Virus genome (UHGV): UHGV-0243446
Length of the DNA stretch: 11,725 bases
Origin: a virus
Direction: 5' to 3' (one strand)
Shown: one piece after another, positions 1,901 through 10,049 of the stretch
Layout: the number at the start of each line of letters is the position of its first letter
How positions within the stretch are numbered: the first letter of the stretch is position 1
The notes under the pieces: model-generated
The model's input: only the letters and a program-made list of their open reading frames with translations
Told to the model about the DNA's origin: nothing
Databases searched by the model: none
Position numbers and translations under genes: made by a program

Positions 1901-2098
1901 TCAATACACAAAATCTGTTTTAAATTCATGGTTACATTCTGGACAGCATGTTTCGTAATCTTTTATTTCTTCACATGCCTGTTTTGCTCCAGAAAATTCC
2001 CAGAAATCAGCATCGCAAAGCAGATCGAAATTGTGGCCGCATTTGGGGCATTCGGTATCAAGTGACAGACTCCAGTAAGCAGGTGTGTTTTTGTCCAT
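1901..2098 (-). CDS. Small zinc-ribbon-like protein (65 aa)
   Basis: ATG about 2098 preceded by AAGGAGAG, immediately after the TGA of the upstream gene (the track's longer ORF to 2179 would overlap that gene). Two Cys pairs: CPKC and CCPEC. Confidence 0.5.
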   Translation of the reverse strand: MDKNTPAYWSLSLDTECPKCGHNFDLLCDADFWEFSGAKQACEEIKDYETCCPECNHEFKTDFVY

Positions 2099-2099
2099 C

Positions 2100-2747
2100 T
2101 CACTCTCCTTTGATGCGAATGCCAGCGGCGCGTGGCACATTAACTTCCACGATGCGCACAGTTGGTTTGTACATCTCAATTGCTGTCAGCCAGTCAGCTC
2201 CTGTCATGCGCTTTTCCGCATCGCCATTAGTCCACTGAACCGGTACACCAATAGCCTTCATCGCGATTTCTATTTCCCCGGCAATGGCGCTTTTTCCGCA
2301 ACCAGTAAAACCAGAAACAACGACAAGAACTTCACCTTTGGCTGGTTTTATTTCCCGTGCTTCCAGTTCTGCAATACGCTTACTCCCATCCGAGATAACA
2401 CCTTCGTAATACTCGCGTTGCTCGTTGAGTTTTGATTTTGCTTCCTCAAGCTCAACACGCAGCTTCCCTACCGTTAGCGCAATATCCTCGTTCTCCTGGT
2501 CGCGGCGTTTGATGTATTGCTGGTTTCTTTCCAGCTCATCCAGCAGCGCCCGAACTACATCAGCGGTTTTCTGGCACTGGTCAACAATGCTAACGTCACA
2601 ACCAGTATCGAAACCGTCCTCAGTTTCAAAGCGGAGCTCTACAGAGTCGCCGTCGATATCAGATGGTTCGAACCCGGCAATGTTTTCCAGAATGCCGATT
2701 ATGCTTTCTGCGCTATGACGTAATGCGCGTTTATCGATGTTGCTCAT
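2100..2747 (-). CDS. Coiled-coil accessory protein (215 aa), possibly Ea22-like, with C-terminal GxxxxGKS motif
   Basis: ATG at 2747 overlaps the upstream stop (ATGA). Central charged heptad-like region (ELEEAKSKLNEQREYYE...AELEAR). C-terminal GFTGCGKS matches the Walker A pattern. The Ea22-like assignment is from memory and weak. Confidence 0.55.
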   Translation of the reverse strand: MSNIDKRALRHSAESIIGILENIAGFEPSDIDGDSVELRFETEDGFDTGCDVSIVDQCQKTADVVRALLDELERNQQYIKRRDQENEDIALTVGKLRVELEEAKSKLNEQREYYEGVISDGSKRIAELEAREIKPAKGEVLVVVSGFTGCGKSAIAGEIEIAMKAIGVPVQWTNGDAEKRMTGADWLTAIEMYKPTVRIVEVNVPRAAGIRIKGE

Positions 2748-3262
2748 GACCGCACTCCTTTGCGAAGCTGGGAAGCAAAGTCAACTAACCACTCAGTCAT
2801 TTCAACCTTCCCTACCAGGTCTGAACCAGGGTGCATACAGCAATCACTCTGCGCCGCTTTGAAATCCTTATACTCATATTCTTGGGCCACCAGATTTTTT
2901 GCAGCTTCTATAGCAGCATCCACGCCCTGCGCTCGTACTTCAGCCAGGAAAGCATCGGTGGCTGGGGTGTCTGATTGCAGAAACTTTGCGCGATAGTCAT
3001 TCCACCCTCTTGCATACATGGGATTAACTTGCACTCCATCTTTTACGCAATATGCCTGCCCTCCACGGTTGATAACCTTGATTTCGTCCATAGCGCCAGA
3101 CTTCGGCCCCGCATTCTCCGCTGCCAGCGCCGCGCACTTGGCCTCAGCTTCAGCAAATTTACGCACCATATATTCAGCATTTGTTTCGTTAACCTTTAAA
3201 TCACATGAGATGCATTTACCTTTCAGAAATCCATCCATCTCAATTAGTGTCATTCGTTTCAT
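2744..3262 (-). CDS. Hypothetical protein (about 172 aa)
   Basis: Track ORF begins with GTG at 3280. An ATG about 3262 overlaps the upstream stop as ATGA, suggesting translational coupling. No recognisable domain. Confidence 0.5.
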
Positions 3263-3423
3263 TTCTTCCCACTCCGCCACATCGCATTCAGATATTTGTT
3301 TTGATTCACTGACGGAGAAGAATTTCTCTTAAGCAATTCCTCTCTCGATGGCATTGGCTTTACGCGTTGGCGAATAATCATTTCTTCCGGAAGAATGCCG
3401 GGATTGTATGCAAGTCCTCTCAT
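3259..3423 (-). CDS. Hypothetical small protein (about 54 aa)
   Basis: The track's 105-aa ORF (to 3576) overlaps the 3434-3730 gene by over 140 nt. An internal ATG about 3423 has a GAGGAA RBS 6 nt upstream and follows the upstream stop. Confidence 0.4.
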
Positions 3424-3433
3424 GGTAAATTCC

Positions 3434-3730
3434 TCAGTCATTACTGATAGCGCCATAGCGTGAGCGGTAATTACGCAGGCGCGGGTCGATATATTCAGGG
3501 AAGTGGGTATATGTGGCTTTGCGGAATGGTCGGATTGATGTCTGGTAAATTCGCTCGCGTTCTTCTTTCTCTGCAAGCCATATACAGTGGCGAAATTCCT
3601 TTTCCTCTTTCGTTTCCTGCGGTAGCGACATTATCCGATCGTAGTTTTTTCTGAATTTATCCAGCACCTCCGATACGGAATTGCCGGAACAGCGGCGCGC
3701 GTCATCCGCACCATACAAAGGCGCTGGCAT
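3434..3730 (-). CDS. Hypothetical basic protein (98 aa)
   Basis: ATG at 3730 with AGGAG RBS 6 nt upstream; directly follows the SSB stop. Confidence 0.55.
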
Positions 3731-5473: not shown

Positions 5474-5707
5474 CTATTGATTCTTTTCAAGAACATCAAT
5501 GATGTCGTCCGGGTTGTCTCCGTTGTCTTCACAAAATGCTTCGAATTCAGCCCATTTCGCGCTGATAAAATCAATTACTCTCATTAATTCGTATTCCATA
5601 TTTTTCTCCAGACCAAAAGAATGCCGCCCATATAGAGCGGCAAGACTATCAAGGAATGATTTCCAATAATCAGAACAAGTCGGCTCCTGTTTAGTTACGA
5701 GCGACAT
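5474..5707 (-). CDS. Hypothetical protein (77 aa; possible alternative start about 5599 giving 41 aa)
   Basis: ATG at 5707 with a weak RBS; an internal ATG about 5599 has a GGAG RBS. Followed on the minus strand by a GCCGCC/GGCGGC hairpin. Confidence 0.4.
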   Translation of the reverse strand: MSLVTKQEPTCSDYWKSFLDSLAALYGRHSFGLEKNMEYELMRVIDFISAKWAEFEAFCEDNGDNPDDIIDVLEKNQ

Positions 5708-6199: not shown

Positions 6200-6238
6200 G
6201 TTATCCTCTGTTGTTTATGCCAAAAATAAAGGCCACCA

Positions 6239-6439
6239 TCAGGCAGCCTTGTTATTCTGTTTACCAAGTTCTCTGGCAATCATTGCCGTCGTTCGTATTG
6301 CCCATTTATCGACATATTTCCCATCTTCCATTACAGGAAACATTTCTTCAGGCTTAACCATGCATTCCGATTGCAGCTTGCATCCATTGCATCGCTTGAA
6401 TTGTCCACACCATTGATTTTTATCAATAGTCGTAGTCAT
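6239..6439 (-). CDS. ral: Ral-like restriction-alleviation protein (66 aa)
   Basis: 66 aa, the same size as lambda Ral. Its start is overlapped by 17 nt by a 28-aa ORF, which matches the lambda orf28/ral arrangement as I recall it. Product MTTTIDKNQWCGQFKRCNGCKLQSEC... Confidence 0.55.
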   Translation of the reverse strand: MTTTIDKNQWCGQFKRCNGCKLQSECMVKPEEMFPVMEDGKYVDKWAIRTTAMIARELGKQNNKAA

Positions 6440-6509
6440 ACGGATAGTCCTGGTATTGTTCCATCACATCCTGAGGATGCTCTTCGAACTCTTCAAATTC
6501 TTCTTCCAT
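6423..6509 (-). CDS. orf28-like acidic micro-protein (28 aa)
   Basis: Absent from the ORF track. ATG about 6509 with GAGGTGA RBS that overlaps the N stop. Product MEEEFEEFEEHPQDVMEQYQDYPYDYDY; stop overlaps the ral-like start. Confidence 0.4.
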   Translation of the reverse strand: MEEEFEEFEEHPQDVMEQYQDYPYDYDY

Positions 6510-6517
6510 ATATCACC

Positions 6518-6817
6518 TCAAATAAGTGGTTTGCTGCCTAATTTCATTTTCTGGCGACCAACACAAGTCACACCCATTTCACTGCGTGGCTTGCTGTAGT
6601 AAATACGGTTCTGTTTACGCTCGACTTCTTCTGCCTTCTTGCAGCGAAGGCTTCCGAGTGATGCTGCTTTGTCTGCTCTGACGCAACCAGAGAGCTTTAG
6701 CGCAATTTTTCGCGCCAGTCGCTGTTCTTGCATTGCCTGTTCACGTTGAGCCTGTCTGCGTGCTCTGCGGCGATTTCTGGTGTTATCGTCAGCCAGATAT
6801 GTAATGACTACTGCCAT
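6518..6817 (-). CDS. N: N-family transcription antitermination protein
   Basis: ATG at 6817 with GGAGG RBS 5 nt upstream. N-terminal arginine-rich motif (TRNRRRARRQAQREQ). C-terminal region (RKQNRIYYSKPRSEMGVTCVGRQKMKLGSKPLI) resembles lambda N. nutL lies upstream in the leader. Confidence 0.85.
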   Translation of the reverse strand: MAVVITYLADDNTRNRRRARRQAQREQAMQEQRLARKIALKLSGCVRADKAASLGSLRCKKAEEVERKQNRIYYSKPRSEMGVTCVGRQKMKLGSKPLI

Positions 6818-6843
6818 GTTGACCTCCGATGATTGACTTTGGC

Positions 6844-6902
6844 GGTGACGCGCCGGGTGCTTATCTTCCGGTTGCTGTCGTGCAGCTGCACTTCACGTCA
6901 CC
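6844..6902 (-). other. Structured N leader: long inverted repeat (GGTGACG...CGTCACC) enclosing the 12-bp palindrome GTGCAGCTGCAC
   Basis: Seen directly in the sequence between nutL and the N RBS. By analogy with the RNase III-processed hairpin in the lambda N leader. Confidence 0.4.
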
Positions 6903-6923
6903 CCAAAGCCAACTACTCTTTGG

Positions 6924-6966
6924 TTCCCGCATTTCGGCGGGACAATCCCATCAATGTTAAAGAGCC
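6924..6966 (-). promoter_or_regulatory. nutL: boxA (GCTCTTTAACA) plus boxB hairpin (TCCCGCCGAAATGCGGGA)
   Basis: On the minus strand the boxB 19-mer is identical to the one downstream of cro (nutR). The boxA-like CGCTCTT core precedes it. Located about 40 nt downstream of the predicted PL start. Confidence 0.75.
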
Positions 6967-7004
6967 TGCCAATCTGTTCCGTTTGGCTTCCAGCGTCCTG
7001 CTGA

Positions 7005-7100
7005 TGGCTAAAGAATACTGTAGGTATTTTATTGTGTAAATACCCAAGGTATTTATTTTTGGTGAAATAATGATAAGCAAATGAATACAAAGGATATTTA
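7005..7100 (-). promoter_or_regulatory. PL promoter with OL operators
   Basis: Minus-strand -35 TTTACA (7040-7035), 17-bp spacer, -10 TATTCT (7017-7012). 17-bp dyad sites GAATACTGTAGGTATTT (7013-7029), AAATACCCAAGGTATTT (7038-7054) and a weaker GAATACAAAGGATATTT (7083-7099). Same half-site family as the OR sites. Confidence 0.6.
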
Positions 7101-7185
7101 TTTTTTTCGGTGTCTGCTTGTTCAGTGCTTTTTATGCGGGATATGTGAAGTGGATCCCGATAGCTATTGCTGCCGGGATTATGGG

Positions 7186-7575
7186 TTAGTCAGCGAAGGT
7201 TAAGACGAGAATTACCTTAATGATGTCTGCTACAACAGACACGGCCATAGATAAACCAAAGACAATCCAAGCCATAGAGATGTCTTCACTACCATCGTAT
7301 AGAGTTCCGTAATCACTGGTGTAAGGCGTAAATGTCGCGCCTTGATACAACAGGTATAAGCTTGAACCATAGAGGATAAATGCAGATATCCCTTGTATTG
7401 CTATGATCACCAGAATCATGAAACGAGCTGATCTATGCGCCCAAGCCTGGCTTATTTTTTCTGATAGAGATTTCGCAATAAAAGCATGCGCTAAGCCGTA
7501 AATTGTCGAGATTTCCAACATCCCCAAAAAGCTTGCTATAGCGGTTCCAACCATAATCGCCCCTTGCGTGATCAA
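7186..7575 (-). CDS. Small polytopic membrane protein (3 predicted TM helices) in the rex/immunity-region position
   Basis: Track ORF begins with TTG overlapping the cI stop. An ATG about 7554 with AAGGGG RBS is likely the real start (about 122 aa). Three hydrophobic segments of about 22-25 residues. Downstream of cI on the same strand, as rexAB is in lambda. Confidence 0.6.
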   Translation of the reverse strand: MITQGAIMVGTAIASFLGMLEISTIYGLAHAFIAKSLSEKISQAWAHRSARFMILVIIAIQGISAFILYGSSLYLLYQGATFTPYTSDYGTLYDGSEDISMAWIVFGLSMAVSVVADIIKVILVLTFAD

Positions 7576-8288
7576 ACCAGCCTTAGTTTTGTCTCAATTG
7601 CAACGCCTATAATCTTGCAGTTTCCATTGATTGGCACGAGAGGCCATGCAGGATTAAGTCCCTTGAGGTATTTATTTCCGCCGTCGATTATCAGCTTCTT
7701 GAATGTTGCTTCGTTAGAGTCAGAAAGTTTTGCTATGACCAAGCTGCCGTTGATCGCCTCCCTTCCGGTATCGAAAAGAACGAATGTTCCCTCTGGAATG
7801 CTTAACCCAACCGGTGCCGTCATTGAATCACCTTCCACTTTAAGCCAGAACGCATTACCTTGAATATGCGCGTCAGACTCAAGCCAAACATCTATGTCTT
7901 TAATGGTGTATGGTTCGCATGCTTCACACCACGAGCCAGCCTGGATACTGCTTAACACCGGATACCTCTTTCCTGCTCTGTATTCCCCTGCATACCTTAC
8001 GTTGGCATCGCTCTTAAGGCTTTCTGCCTGTTCTGCAACCTTGGCAGCAATTGACTGGCTAAAATCAGCAATTGAGACTTGCAACAGTCGTGCAAAACCA
8101 GATGCAACCTCAACGTTTAGCGCGTTTCTGCCATTAAGATAATGCCCTACCGCTCCTTGGGTGATACCCAGTTCATCAGCGATTGAGTATTGGGTTATTC
8201 CCAATTCTTTCTTTTTTGACTCATACAAAGCCTTAAGCCGCTTAGCGTCTTCGAGCTGTTCTGTCGTCAGTGATTTTTTATTTTCCAT
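7572..8288 (-). CDS. cI: cI-type phage repressor (HTH N-domain plus S24 LexA-like autoprotease C-domain)
   Basis: N-terminus MENKKSLTTEQLEDAKRLKALYESKKKELGITQYSIADELG resembles lambda cI. Ala-Gly cleavage site in IQAGSW. Catalytic Ser in GDSM and Lys in FKKL. Start codon abuts the operator region. Confidence 0.92.
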   Translation of the reverse strand: MENKKSLTTEQLEDAKRLKALYESKKKELGITQYSIADELGITQGAVGHYLNGRNALNVEVASGFARLLQVSIADFSQSIAAKVAEQAESLKSDANVRYAGEYRAGKRYPVLSSIQAGSWCEACEPYTIKDIDVWLESDAHIQGNAFWLKVEGDSMTAPVGLSIPEGTFVLFDTGREAINGSLVIAKLSDSNEATFKKLIIDGGNKYLKGLNPAWPLVPINGNCKIIGVAIETKLRLV

Positions 8289-8394
8289 AGCTTAATTCTA
8301 ATAGCTAAGGTACTTAAACTAAAAATACCCTGAGTATTGATTGCTTTGAATACCTGTAGTATTCTTTGTTCATGGTTAATAACGGAGAGTGCAT
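8289..8394. promoter_or_regulatory. OR operator region with divergent PRM and PR promoters
   Basis: Dyad sites AATACCCTGAGTATT (8324-8338) and GAATACCTGTAGTATTC (8348-8364); possible weak third site about 8299-8316. PR: -35 TTGATT (8337-8342), 17-bp spacer, -10 TATTCT (8360-8365). PRM on the minus strand: -10 TAGAAT (8300-8295), weak -35 TTTAGT (8323-8318), start at or near the cI AUG (leaderless). Confidence 0.65.
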
Positions 8395-8589
8395 ATGATT
8401 CGAATGACACTTGCCGATTACGCCAAAATCCATGGACAGGCTAAAGCAGCCAGTGACTTTGGTGTAATCCAGTGCGCTATCAGCAAGGCCATTCTGGCAG
8501 GCCGTAACATTATGGTTACGGTAAAGCCTGATGGCAGTGTGATTGGAGAGGAAGTTCGTCCTTTCCCAAGCAACAAGAAAAACAAATAG
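8395..8589 (+). CDS. cro: Cro repressor
   Basis: Product [64 protein letters not shown] resembles lambda Cro. GGAGAG RBS at 8384-8389. The track start at 8389 is a GTG; ATG at 8395 is preferred. Confidence 0.88.
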
Positions 8590-8595
8590 TAACAC

Positions 8596-8640
8596 CGCTC
8601 TTTAACAGTCATGGTCCTCATTCCCGCCGAAATGCGGGAA
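8596..8640 (+). promoter_or_regulatory. nutR: boxA (CGCTCTTTAACA, 8596-8607) plus boxB hairpin (8621-8640)
   Basis: boxA matches the lambda boxA core CGCTCTT. boxB TTCCCGC-CGAAAT-GCGGGAA is a perfect 7-bp stem and is identical to the nutL boxB. Confidence 0.75.
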
Positions 8641-8697
8641 TACAACGCGCATCAGTTGGTGCGTATAACTTCTTATTTATTAAGGAAATACTTACAT

Positions 8698-8976
8698 ATG
8701 CAACTTACAAGTACTCGCAAGAAAGCGAATGCAATTACAAGCAACATCCTGAATCGAATTGCTGTACGTGGTCAGCGAAAGGTTGCTGATGCATTAGGGA
8801 TTAATGAATCGCAAATTTCGCGATGGAAAGACAGCTTTATCCCAAAGATGGCCATGCTTCTGGCTGTGCTGGAGTGGGGTGTTGAAGACGAGGAATTAGC
8901 GGAGCTGGCAAAGAAAGTAGCCATGGTGCTGACAAAAGAAAAGCCTCAAGACTGCTGCAACAGTTTTGAGGCCTGA
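8698..8976 (+). CDS. cII: cII transcriptional activator
   Basis: ATG at 8698 with AAGGAA RBS. Product ...ESQISRWKDSFIPKMAMLLAVLEWGV... resembles lambda cII (KSQISRWKRDWIPKFSMLLAVLEWGV). The track start at 8611 lies inside nutR and has no RBS. Confidence 0.85.
   Translation: MQLTSTRKKANAITSNILNRIAVRGQRKVADALGINESQISRWKDSFIPKMAMLLAVLEWGVEDEELAELAKKVAMVLTKEKPQDCCNSFEA
8700..8745 (-). promoter_or_regulatory. PRE-like cII-dependent promoter (TTGC-N6-TTGC on the minus strand at 8731-8744)
   Basis: Plus strand reads GCAA-TTACAA-GCAA inside the 5' end of cII, the position of PRE in lambda. The -10 element is not confidently located. Confidence 0.5.
8930..8972 (-). terminator. Intrinsic terminator on the minus strand (oop-RNA-like antisense terminator inside the cII 3' end)
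   Basis: 12-bp stem GCCTCAAGACTG/CAGTTTTGAGGC with a 6-nt loop (8943-8972). On the minus strand it is followed by a U-rich tract (complement of ACAAAAGAAAA, 8932-8942). Confidence 0.5.
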
Positions 8977-9010: not shown

Positions 9011-9172
9011 ATGACAAAACGTCGTAAGAAATACCAGGAAAAAGAAGAGATTCGACACCCTGATTCACCTGAGGGATTAGTGGTAGCCGCAGCAAATAAC
9101 AGGGCGTTCGCAGAGCGCCTTGTTGGTGTTTACAGACTAGCCAAAGCAGGAGTGAAGCATGGGCGTCGTTAA
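9011..9172 (+). CDS. Hypothetical small basic protein (53 aa) between cII and the replication initiator
   Basis: ATG about 9011 with AGGAG RBS about 6 nt upstream; its stop overlaps the start of the downstream O-like ORF. The track's longer version begins with TTG at 8966 inside cII. Confidence 0.35.
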   Translation: MTKRRKKYQEKEEIRHPDSPEGLVVAAANNRAFAERLVGVYRLAKAGVKHGRR

Positions 9173-10049
9173 GTTAGCTGATTACAGGCATAACCCTGTA
9201 CAACATCAGGAGGCATCCAGTATGGGGTATGTCTCTATACACCGCCAGTTTATGGACAGCAGGCTCTATAAGGACTCTCAGGCAGTACATCTTTGGCTTC
9301 ACTTAATCCTCAAGGCTAATCACGAATCTACTGTCGTCAATACGGATATCGGTCCGATAACTGTTGATCGCGGTCAGATGATAACTGGACGCCCGTCGCT
9401 GGTCAGAGAAACATTCATCCCCGACAACAAAGTTCGGAGCTTATTACGGACTTTTGAGTCGAAAGGGATGCTTAATATTTGCTCGATGGGGAAGAAATTT
9501 AGCCTGTTTACAATCGTTAAATATGACGATTTTCAGGCAAAAAATTGTCCAACGGTTGTCCAACGGTTGTCCAACGCAAACACCAGTAATGGCGCGGCTC
9601 TCAGCGGAGATTGTCCAACGGTTGTCCAACGGTTGTCCATAAACAATAATATAAATAATATCTCTAATACTGACGTATTAGAGAGTGCCACAGCAGACAA
9701 AAAGTCTGACAAGAAAAAACCTTCCGTCAGCTGTCAGGATGTTGTCGATGCTTACCACGAAATCCTTCCTGAAGCGCCAAGAATCCGCGCACTGAATGAC
9801 AAGCGTAAAAACCAGATCCGAACGTTCTGGCGCAAAGCCGGAGTGATAACCCGCCAGCTTGACGGGCATGGGTTCACGATGCAGGACTGGAGAAATTATT
9901 TGAGCTACGTAGGCGAAAATTGCCGATGGATGTTCGAAGAACGCCCAAACCATCAACGCGGAACCGTCTGGCACAAAAAGGGATTTGATTTCCTGCTTAA
10001 CGACAATACCTACCTGAAAGTTCGTGAGGGTGAACACGATGACCGATAA
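9159..10049 (+). CDS. Replication initiator (lambda O-like / replisome organiser) containing the origin iterons
   Basis: Sits in the O position and is translationally coupled to the helicase. Iterons and an AT-rich tract lie inside the coding sequence, as ori-lambda lies inside O. An alternative start at ATG 9222 has a strong AGGAGG RBS. Confidence 0.7.
   Translation: MGVVKLADYRHNPVQHQEASSMGYVSIHRQFMDSRLYKDSQAVHLWLHLILKANHESTVVNTDIGPITVDRGQMITGRPSLVRETFIPDNKVRSLLRTFESKGMLNICSMGKKFSLFTIVKYDDFQAKNCPTVVQRLSNANTSNGAALSGDCPTVVQRLSINNNINNISNTDVLESATADKKSDKKKPSVSCQDVVDAYHEILPEAPRIRALNDKRKNQIRTFWRKAGVITRQLDGHGFTMQDWRNYLSYVGENCRWMFEERPNHQRGTVWHKKGFDFLLNDNTYLKVREGEHDDR
9545..9643. repeat. Phage replication origin iterons: six copies of an 11-bp repeat TTGTCCAACGG in two triplets
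   Basis: Copies at 9545-9577 and 9611-9643 with 11-bp register. Followed by an AT-rich tract (9641-9665) and a 9-bp inverted repeat CTCTAATAC-TGAC-GTATTAGAG (about 9660-9685). Confidence 0.75.

Follow-up and report, generated by a model that had tools for sequence, protein, structure and literature searches.

A probable HK620-class N/nut module in a lambdoid prophage and the co-inheritance of its arginine-rich motif and boxB

To our knowledge, solved N-boxB structures are limited to three pairs, those of the phages lambda, P22, and 21. The lambda boxB loop (GAAAA or GAAGA) reportedly folds as a GNRA-like pentaloop, in work attributed to Legault et al. in 1998; the P22 N-boxB complex, with the loop GACAA, is said to come from Cai et al. 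in the same year, and that of the phage 21 N peptide with its boxB (PDB 1NYB) from Cilley and Williamson in 2003. According to a passage in PMC12550061, the CUAACC hexaloop of 1NYB adopts a GNRA-like fold of the UMAC type, flanked by a C-C pair. A further system of interest is HK022 Nun (PDB 6ALG), an arginine-rich motif (ARM) protein reading the boxB of another phage; its action is to halt transcription and keep out competing phages, in contrast to antitermination by N.

The DNA analysed here (hereafter, the window) is the whole stretch of 11,725 nt from UHGV virus genome UHGV-0243446. Its immunity region shares 98.6% DNA identity with that of coliphage HK620, whose GenBank record (AF335538, 2001; Clark et al. 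2001) already labels the same stretches "nutL/nutR; putative N-utilization" and the gene N, and also annotates pL, pR, and the operators. The two have an identical boxB at both sites and likewise agree in boxA, pL and pR, the operators, cI, and cro; residues 1-32 of their N proteins match at 30 of 32 positions (A2T, T13A). They differ in the rest of N: the HK620 protein has 90 aa and a P22/H-19B-type end (...CLPNVAIYAAGYRKSKQLTAR), whereas that of the window has 99 aa and a phage 21/lambda-type end (...GRQKMKLGSKPLI), a mosaic that is itself common. Judged by its sequence, the N/nut unit is a known one of the HK620 type, annotated since 2001, and not a novel one. The sequence-only reading had named an exact match to a characterised phage as the evidence that would count against it; HK620 provides such a match in sequence and annotation, but not biochemically, as the searchable literature (queried for HK620 boxB, CGAAAU boxB, hexaloop boxB, and orthogonal N peptides) returned no binding or antitermination study of the HK620-class pair. 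The unit formed by nutL and this ARM is abundant, occurring in 511 of the 5426 complete Escherichia coli genomes (about a tenth), in 282 IMG/VR contigs, and in approximately 20 named phages (e.g., HK620, HK140, HK630, CUS-3, mEpX2, mEp213, N7, and ECP1). The window itself contains no Nun-like gene.

The features of the early region are the following:
5622-5642, minus strand: second terminator-like site of the pL operon (terminator scan).
6229..6250, minus strand: terminator-like hairpin with U-run, located in the pL operon past N and ral (terminator scan); a candidate target of N antitermination.
6518..6817, minus strand: N antiterminator gene, 99 aa, start MAVVITYLADDNTRNRRRARRQAQREQ (ORF; phrog_271, anti-termination protein N-like, E = 2e-35).
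6737..6787, minus strand: ARM of N, DNTRNRRRARRQAQREQ, codons 11-27 (ORF and class alignment).
6832..6913, minus strand: long hairpin lying between the nutL boxB and the N ribosome-binding site (minimum-free-energy and centroid structures); an N-leader element of putative function.
6925..6942, minus strand: nutL boxB hairpin, with UCCCGC at 6942-6937, the loop CGAAAU at 6936-6931, and GCGGGA at 6930-6925 (inverted repeat, fold, and HK620 nutL annotation of the homologous stretch).
6955..6965, minus strand: nutL boxA, GCTCTTTAACA, separated from the boxB stem by 12 nt (repeat I3; identical to the annotated boxA-L of phage 21).
7012..7040, minus strand: pL, promoter-like, inside the OL operator repeats, driving the nutL-N transcript (promoter scan, HK620 annotation of pL and OL1-3, operator repeat family D1).
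7572..8288, minus strand: cI repressor (HTH_3 and Peptidase_S24), between the nut sites (ORF, domains, HK620 annotation).
8336..8371 (+/-1 nt), plus strand: pR/OR region, driving the cro-nutR-cII transcript (annotation transfer from HK620; inverted repeat I1).
8395..8589, plus strand: cro (Pfam Cro, E = 3.6e-26).
8597..8607, plus strand: nutR boxA, (C)GCTCTTTAACA, 7 nt past the cro stop codon (HK620 nutR annotation).
8620..8641, plus strand: nutR boxB hairpin, with AUUCCCGC at 8620-8627, the loop CGAAAU at 8628-8633, and GCGGGAAU at 8634-8641 (repeat and fold).
8698..8976, plus strand: cII, first gene past nutR (Phage_CII, E = 1.9e-44).

The two 19-nt arms at 6924-6942 and 8622-8640 are 100% complementary and form a perfect inverted pair, from which the pL and pR transcripts receive an identical boxB hairpin, UCCCGC-CGAAAU-GCGGGA-A; the boxB motif appeared in none of 200 dinucleotide-preserving shuffles. 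The presence of the same 19-nt boxB at both sites, proposed from the sequence alone, was thus borne out, and so was their assignment as the two nut sites (nutL and nutR) of a lambdoid prophage, on the basis of boxA, gene order, and the HK620 annotation. The 7-bp stem proposed with it had to be revised: 6 bp are common to both sites, nutL having 6 bp and nutR 8 bp (AUUCCCGC/GCGGGAAU). Both boxBs match the HK620-class core CCCGC-CGAAAU-GCGGG exactly, and each is the lone hairpin in the minimum-free-energy and centroid structures (short-fragment z-scores of -3.0 and -3.4), where RNAfold draws a plain loop of 6 nt, a C·U closing pair and a sheared G·A pair lying outside its evaluation. Upstream of boxB, at a distance of 13-15 nt in both nut sites, lies the boxA GCTCTTTAACA, of the rrn/phage-21 type and annotated as boxA in the phage 21 record; a boxA conforming to the CGCTCTTTAACA-like consensus is found in both early transcripts. 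Rfam holds no nut/boxB family, and the search of the window against it gave no gathering-level matches and, near the nut sites, chance-level ones only.

The N gene is the first one past nutL; it starts 108 nt after boxB and is preceded by a Shine-Dalgarno sequence. The ORF begins with MAVVITYLADDNTRNRRRARRQAQREQ and bears the arginine-rich motif that had been read in it (6518-6817, minus strand). The search against Pfam retrieved no match for N, PHROGs having provided the one given above; tblastn of the 32-aa ARM module against the phage collection was also negative, which we ascribe to masking of the query by the low-complexity filter. The protein is a mosaic, in which residues 1-32 are of the HK620 type and residues 33-99 correspond to phage 21 N. 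The former carry the N-terminal module of the HK620 class, M(T/A)VVITYLADDN(A/T)RNRRRARRQAQREQ (T13 being a variant seen in 7 of the 201 distinct junctions), and the core xxRNRRRxxR, which is kept throughout the ARMs of the class. The latter are essentially identical to their phage 21 counterpart, the middle of the protein being identical to it. The window also has the pL leader and boxA in common with phage 21. At the DNA level, the identity between the two is 92% for the pL leader and boxA, 38% for boxB, 44% for N codons 1-32, and 98.5% for codons 33-99; divergence confined to boxB and to the first 32 codons of N, within DNA that is otherwise 92-98% identical, is the hallmark of a co-selected swap rather than of drift. 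In the comparison with lambda N, the last ~38 residues, which correspond to its RNA polymerase-binding tail, are the sole segment that aligns significantly (residues 62-99 with residues 74-110 of lambda N in PDB 6GOV, E = 2.4e-5), and no significant alignment was obtained with the central NusA-binding segment (lambda residues 34-47). The C-terminus described earlier as lambda-like is therefore so in its last part, but it is more exactly that of phage 21 N.

Among the arginine-rich motifs, that of lambda (MDAQTRRRERRAEKQAQW) is unrelated to that of the window apart from the arginines (the domain 1 alignment is not significant). The phage 21 ARM, TAKSRYKARR, is homologous to NARNRRRARR of the HK620 class, but has a Tyr (KSRYKARR) where the window has an Arg (RNRRRARR), and the window does not match the phage 21-class motif TAKSRYKARRAELIAERR.

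The natural variation of boxB allowed us to read the loop. Hairpins were located through boxA, leaving the loop unconstrained; the variants retrieved were C[GAAA]U, C[GCAA]U, C[GAGA]U, A[GGAA]U, A[GAGA]U, A[GUAA]U, and A[GAAA]U, with CGAAAU by far the commonest (185 of 201 junctions). Across the class, the G at position 1, the A at position 4, and the 3' U are invariant, position 2 is occupied by all four bases, and position 3 by A or G. As for the stem, the 27 distinct hairpins show compensatory changes at five of nine pairs, with a covariation score of 0.332 against 0.206 for shuffled alignments, a value reached in none of 500 shuffles. These loop variants indicate that CGAAAU most likely consists of a GNRA tetraloop, GAAA, and a C·U mismatch that closes it. 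In some relatives an A-U pair takes the place of the mismatch, and it is this A-U closure that points to the tetraloop register. The loop of six nucleotides initially noticed does occur at both sites; however, it is not without precedent, given CUAACC in phage 21, and the comparative data favour a tetraloop on a C·U platform.

By analogy, the HK620-class architecture would be that of the phage 21 boxB, C[UAAC]C, in which a C·C pair flanks the GNRA-like UMAC turn. Both are hexaloops of the form Y[4-nt GNRA-like turn]Y, but the window has a true GNRA sequence (C[GAAA]U), so that it falls outside the phage 21 class (hexaloop CUAACC, UMAC-type turn), and the stem sequences are unrelated. Lambda and P22 share with the window the order of boxA and boxB hairpin, an N-terminal ARM helix in N, and a GNRA-type loop fold; unlike the 4-nt GNRA with C·U closure seen here, their loops comprise 5 nt, extrude one base, and are closed by a U-A pair. 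A pentaloop of this type (GNRNA or GACAA, U-A closed) does not match the window and would need a bulged stem base. According to these data, the ARM/boxB pair is unlike those of lambda, P22, and phage 21.

A distinct N-boxB specificity pair, as suggested in the sequence-only reading, would predict perfect co-segregation of ARM and boxB, and this is what the readable loci display: the two types co-segregate without exception in about 200 HK620-class and 80 phage-21-class junctions, although these counts are not independent events, since most loci are close relatives. Starting from boxB, all 97 IMG/VR copies of the nutL-type core with enough downstream sequence precede an N that carries [RK]NRRR..R, independently of both the C-terminus of N (lambda/21-type, P22/H-19B-type, or others) and the immunity region that the nut sites enclose. 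Starting from the ARM, a strict boxA together with UGUCCCGC-CGAAAU-GCGGGAAC was found in 79 of 80 IMG/VR loci (a tally that also includes two genome loci). A boxA-anchored hairpin was detectable in 193 of the 201 distinct nutL-N junctions; 191 of these combine NRRR-type ARMs with N[GNRA]U loops, and the remaining two, NRYR-type ARMs with C[UGAC]A or C[UAGC]A. In the phage-21-class loci (TAKSRYKARR), the nutL loop is CUAACC in all 80, one stem variant aside, and the nutR loops, where found, are C[UAAC]C, C[UAAC]A, or C[UAAU]C. An intermediate ARM, NSKNRYRARR, goes with C[UAAC]A, C[UGAC]A, or C[UAGC]A. The Tyr-to-Arg difference in the ARM thus tracks the loop, UMAC-type versus GNRA-type, a correlation with few independent lineages behind it, namely phage 21, the HK620 class, and two loci of the Phytobacter type. 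The proposal of a distinct specificity pair therefore stands as far as co-segregation is concerned, but not as a novelty, given the HK620 boxB and ARM module described above.

The apparent exceptions were inspected one by one. In four loci seemingly devoid of the ARM, the sequence breaks off within 300 nt past nutL; one locus (L185) has unrelated DNA upstream of N and is probably rearranged, and another (L172) possesses boxB with a variant boxA. Contig L261 looked like a mixture of a P22-type boxB and an HK620-type N; it harbors two N genes, the second of which has its own HK620-type boxB 400 nt upstream.

In principle, the inverted 19-mers might be no RNA signals at all, acting either as intrinsic terminators or as a DNA boundary for the exchange of immunity modules. 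The same boxB pair does flank many different immunity regions, with a spacing of 1.15 to 3 kb, and the CUS-3 record marks a "boundary sequence" across the stretch. Nevertheless, the stem changes preserve pairing, the hairpins lie at the canonical distance past boxA in both transcripts, and a recombination boundary would be a role added to the nut function rather than an alternative to it. The terminator version was discarded, neither hairpin being followed by a U-run and the terminator scan calling neither. We consider this explanation as a whole highly improbable. An unstructured loop of six nucleotides, with its bases read one by one, agrees with the minimum-free-energy fold and with the dominance of CGAAAU, but is difficult to reconcile with variants that retain G-N-R-A and in some cases exchange the C·U for a Watson-Crick A-U. 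Moreover, a single phage can combine A[GAGA]U in nutL with C[GCAA]U in nutR, which fits recognition of a fold and not base-by-base reading; such a loop therefore appears unlikely, and a GNRA tetraloop is preferred.

A different objection concerns specificity, since the HK620-class and phage 21 pairs might belong to the same machinery and cross-react, their differences being due to drift or hitch-hiking. Their ARMs align as A[KR][SN]R[YR][KR]ARR, both boxBs place a pyrimidine-pyrimidine pair around a 4-nt turn, and the intermediate ARM/boxB type exists. Furthermore, the boxB requirements of lambda and P22 N overlap (Cocozaki et al. 2008, as related in a passage of PMC8022706), which implies that distinct sequence classes may be less than fully orthogonal. 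On the other hand, no mixed ARM/boxB combination was seen in 193 HK620-class junctions and 80 phage-21-class loci, and drift would hardly be confined to boxB and the first 32 codons of N. Cross-reaction without separate specificities is thus, in our opinion, rather improbable, and we regard a distinct specificity class for the HK620-type pair as plausible on comparative grounds.

Very probably, the locus provides early antitermination to a lambdoid E. coli prophage and belongs to the HK620 N/nut class. In the mechanism that we propose, the leftward pL and rightward pR transcripts would each present boxA and then the same boxB hairpin; boxA would recruit the host NusB/NusE, and boxB would be bound by the N-terminal arginine-rich helix of N, while its phage-21/lambda-type middle and C-terminal parts would engage NusA and RNA polymerase, allowing the latter to pass the terminators of both early operons. 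The analysis shows the anatomy of the sequence, the order of the genes, the homologies, and the strict co-inheritance of ARM and boxB types; binding of boxB and antitermination are carried over to the window from the model established for lambda, P22, and phage 21. More tentatively, and as a possibility to which we would not yet commit ourselves, the HK620-class pair may represent a fourth, naturally orthogonal ARM-RNA solution, made up of a GNRA tetraloop on a C·U/A-U platform and a phage-21-like helix, with one Tyr-to-Arg change in the helix going along with the switch from UMAC to GNRA; the Phytobacter-type sites (NSKNRYRARR) would then be surviving intermediates.

If this were the case, the HK620 class would document a stepwise natural path of co-evolution of peptide-RNA specificity and provide an additional orthogonal pair for tethering, a compact one, as well as an example of specificity pairs diverging while the remainder of N is freely exchanged. 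For genome annotation, the impact is small, this being the ordinary N/nut switch found in a common type of prophage. The residual value lies in RNA-peptide recognition, where a class very common in E. coli, with its N[GNRA]U loop and Tyr/Arg variation, predicts the features that are read.

Two minor observations can be added. A Nun-like protein encoded on contig L261 has an ARM similar to that of the HK620 class; should the fourth-solution proposal be correct, exclusion proteins of this kind would suggest that the class is also targeted in phage-phage competition. Lastly, HK620-class N proteins are often labelled "hypothetical protein" in RefSeq, and the signature of the class could improve their annotation.

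ORF calls and Pfam/PHROGs matches show that the window carries a lambdoid prophage's immunity and early-control region, in which the order is N, nutL, pL with its OL operators, a small membrane-protein gene, cI, OR/pR, cro, nutR, cII and genes for an O-like protein and a DnaB-like helicase. The features located were the following:

5642-5622 and 6250-6229, minus strand: terminator-like sites, downstream of N and ral
6518-6817, minus strand: N (antiterminator)
7040-7012: pL-like promoter, with nutL lying between it and N
7572-8288, minus strand: cI
8395-8589, plus strand: cro
8698-8976, plus strand: cII
9159-10049, plus strand: O-like replication protein

The arms at 6924-6942 and 8622-8640 form a perfect 19-nt inverted repeat, a motif occurring in 0 of 200 shuffles of the window. 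As RNA, each in its own transcript, both read UCCCGC-CGAAAU-GCGGGA-A and fold as an isolated hairpin, whose stem has 6 bp in nutL and 8 bp in nutR. The boxA sequence, GCTCTTTAACA, lies 13-15 nt before each boxB hairpin; nutR starts 7 nt past the cro stop codon, and N starts 108 nt past boxB, preceded by a GGAGG Shine-Dalgarno sequence. The N sequence (MAVVITYLADDNTRNRRRARRQAQREQ...) is as the sequence-only reading had described it, and the observation of identical boxB hairpins at two nut sites accompanied by N is confirmed; the sole correction concerns the stem, which it gave as 7 bp and of which 6 bp are shared.

The N leader (6832-6913, minus strand) contains a long stable hairpin, lying after the nutL boxB and ahead of the N ribosome-binding site, in both the MFE and the centroid folds, in the same place as the RNase III-sensitive N-leader structure of lambda. 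A predicted membrane protein of 129 aa (7186-7575, minus strand) is encoded between cI and OL, where lambda has rexAB; this counterpart of HK620 hkaS matches phrog_6534 (unknown function), has no match in Pfam, and is probably expressed from the prophage by co-transcription with cI. The translated O-like ORF carries the peptide CPTVVQRLS twice, about 20 residues apart; this suggests that the gene contains origin iterons, repeated directly in its DNA like those of lambda O.

Megablast against phage records showed that region 6400-8700 is 98.6% identical to coliphage HK620 and also occurs in HK140, HK630, mEpX2, HF4s, HZ41 and some Stx phages. The HK620 record (AF335538) labels the homologous stretches "nutL/nutR; putative N-utilization" and annotates pL, pR, OL1-3, OR1-3, cI, cro, cII and N; thus, the nut sites and N are already known and annotated. 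Judged on sequence, the window element belongs to the lambdoid N/nut system, every tested defining feature being present, and its identical boxB and near-identical ARM (arginine-rich motif) assign it to the HK620 class; the loops and ARMs that define the phage 21, lambda and P22 classes are absent from it. The class is found in about 20 named phages, 282 IMG/VR contigs and 511 of 5426 complete E. coli genomes. In the eight top-ranked complete E. coli RefSeq genomes among those listed, the feature underlying the match to nutL and the 5' part of N is annotated only as "hypothetical protein" (e.g., NZ_CP100936.1, 2517993-2518253).

The N protein is a mosaic. Residues 1-32, the ARM module, are alike at 30 of 32 positions in the HK620 and window proteins, whereas the C-terminus is of the P22/H-19B type in the former and that of phage 21 N in the latter; the last 38 residues of the window's N align with the tail by which lambda N binds RNA polymerase (cryo-EM complex 6GOV). 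The DNA identity to phage 21 is as follows:

pL leader and boxA: 92%
boxB: 38%
leader, from boxB to the N start: 74%
N codons 1-32: 44%
N codons 33-99: 98.5%

These values indicate that boxB and the ARM module, the parts expected to be in mutual contact, were exchanged together within otherwise shared DNA.

Scanning IMG/VR for exact copies of the boxB core CCCGCCGAAATGCGGG retrieved at least 120 loci, most of them divergent pairs about 1.15 to 3 kb apart, so that the pair surrounds many different immunity regions. Since these regions differ in length, the N/nut class has been exchanged independently of the cI/cro allele. The nutL-nutR spacings in these IMG/VR loci (L005-L124) are about 1150, 1250, 1400, 1700, 1740, 2000, 2300, 2860 and 2990 nt, and in the CUS-3 record the nutL-N stretch bears the label "boundary sequence".

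In IMG/VR, 97 boxB copies lie ahead of an N gene, and in every case that N contains [RK]NRRR..R; the remainder of these proteins is freely mosaic, with lambda/21-type, P22/H-19B-type and other C-termini. In the four loci apparently without such an N, the DNA ends less than 300 nt downstream of nutL. The reverse search from the ARM gave 282 IMG/VR relatives, from which 80 IMG/VR loci were kept and tallied with two genome loci; 79 of this tally show strict boxA plus UGUCCCGC-CGAAAU-GCGGGAAC. Outside the pattern are L172 (boxA variant, boxB kept), L185 (upstream region probably rearranged), L161 (no upstream sequence to read) and the distant genome loci L127, L128 and L129. L172 (IMGVR_UViG_2703718791_000008, N at ~1201) has GCACTTTAA in place of GCTCTTTAA in boxA, and its HK620-class nutL and N stand behind lambda-like operators (TATCACCGC-type).

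In the 80 phage-21-class loci (TAKSRYKARR), nutL carries CUAACC throughout, save for one stem variant, and the nutR loops, where found, are C[UAAC]C, C[UAAC]A and C[UAAU]C. No mixed ARM/boxB combination was seen among the HK620-class and phage-21-class loci examined. Such strict co-inheritance is the pattern expected of a cognate specificity pair, although the loci are kin and the counts overstate the number of independent events. The proposal of a distinct N-boxB pair is supported in that ARM and boxB differ from those of lambda, P22 and phage 21 and are not mixed in these loci, but the pair is not new, having been annotated in HK620.

Distant relatives were taken from Pantoea, Erwinia and Phytobacter genomes and IMG/VR, their nut sites being located by boxA and the best following hairpin alone, with the loop unconstrained. 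With NRRR-type ARMs, 185 of 201 distinct nutL-N junctions have a C[GAAA]U loop; nutL loops of the forms A[GAGA]U, A[GUAA]U, A[GGAA]U and A[GAAA]U also occur, as do nutR loops of the forms C[GCAA]U and C[GAGA]U. Within the brackets, G at position 1 and A at position 4 are invariant, as is the 3' U, position 2 is any of the four bases and position 3 is A or G; the base flanking on the 5' side is C or A, the latter pairing Watson-Crick with the invariant U. In one phage (L220), the nutL loop is A[GAGA]U and the nutR loop C[GCAA]U; hence, its N must accept that variation. The stem shows compensatory changes at five of nine positions, with a covariation score of 0.332 versus 0.206 for shuffles (reached in 0 of 500) and of at most 0.16 in slid registers. 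The simplest reading is that the loop would be a tetraloop of the GNRA type, with a C·U mismatch or an A-U pair closing it, mirroring phage 21 boxB, whose CUAACC hexaloop adopts a GNRA-like UMAC fold with a C-C pair flanking it (PDB 1NYB; PMC12550061).

In Pantoea/Erwinia-type relatives (L128, L210, L219, L223 and others), the nutR boxB keeps GC-C[GNRA]U-GC, or AC...GU as a compensatory change, and three pairs down the stem from the loop there is always an internal mismatch, C·A or C·C (GCUCC-C-GC...GC-A/C-GGAGC); nutL lacks this conserved irregularity.

Among known pairs, phage 21 is the nearest in architecture, and alignment indicates that the ARMs of phage 21 (T-A-K-S-R-Y-K-A-R-R), the HK620 class (N-A-R-N-R-R-R-A-R-R) and the Phytobacter type (N-S-K-N-R-Y-R-A-R-R) are homologous. 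Since Tyr is retained in the Phytobacter type, whose loops (C[UAAC]A, C[UGAC]A and C[UAGC]A) resemble those of phage 21, the Tyr/Arg position appears to track loop type, a correlation across few lineages.

Antitermination in lambda, P22 and phage 21 provides the established model. By analogy, boxA RNA would bind NusB/NusE, the ARM helix of N would bind boxB, the remainder of N would bind NusA and RNA polymerase, and the modified polymerase would read through the early terminators. Comparative-genomics papers commonly infer a new boxB specificity from a different N-terminus, e.g., for epsilon34 (PMC2629481); the literature searched, which left out the original HK620 paper, yielded no binding or antitermination study of the HK620-class pair. 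This analysis adds that ARM and boxB are strictly co-inherited, that the loop can be read as N[GNRA]U and that the pair is homologous to that of phage 21, with a Tyr/Arg switch between them: a tidy, testable example for peptide-RNA specificity rather than a surprise.

Finally, one contig, L261 (IMGVR_UViG_3300013343_000002, 1918-3509), carries both P22-type and HK620-type N/boxB sets, in this order:

boxA and P22-type boxB (UGCGCU-GACAA-AGCGCG)
2031-2456: P22-type N
2453-2746: 97-aa Nun-like ORF
terminator
2779-2799: HK620-type boxB without boxA
3204-3509: HK620-class N

Nothing in the phage record collection matches the Nun-like ORF. At its C-terminus (...VNHAHQRDKRKKWS) it matches HK022 Nun (PDB 6ALG, E = 0.011), and its ARM (KDNSRNRRRERRKQ) resembles that of the HK620 class. 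It may encode an exclusion protein of the Nun type, directed against HK620-class phages.
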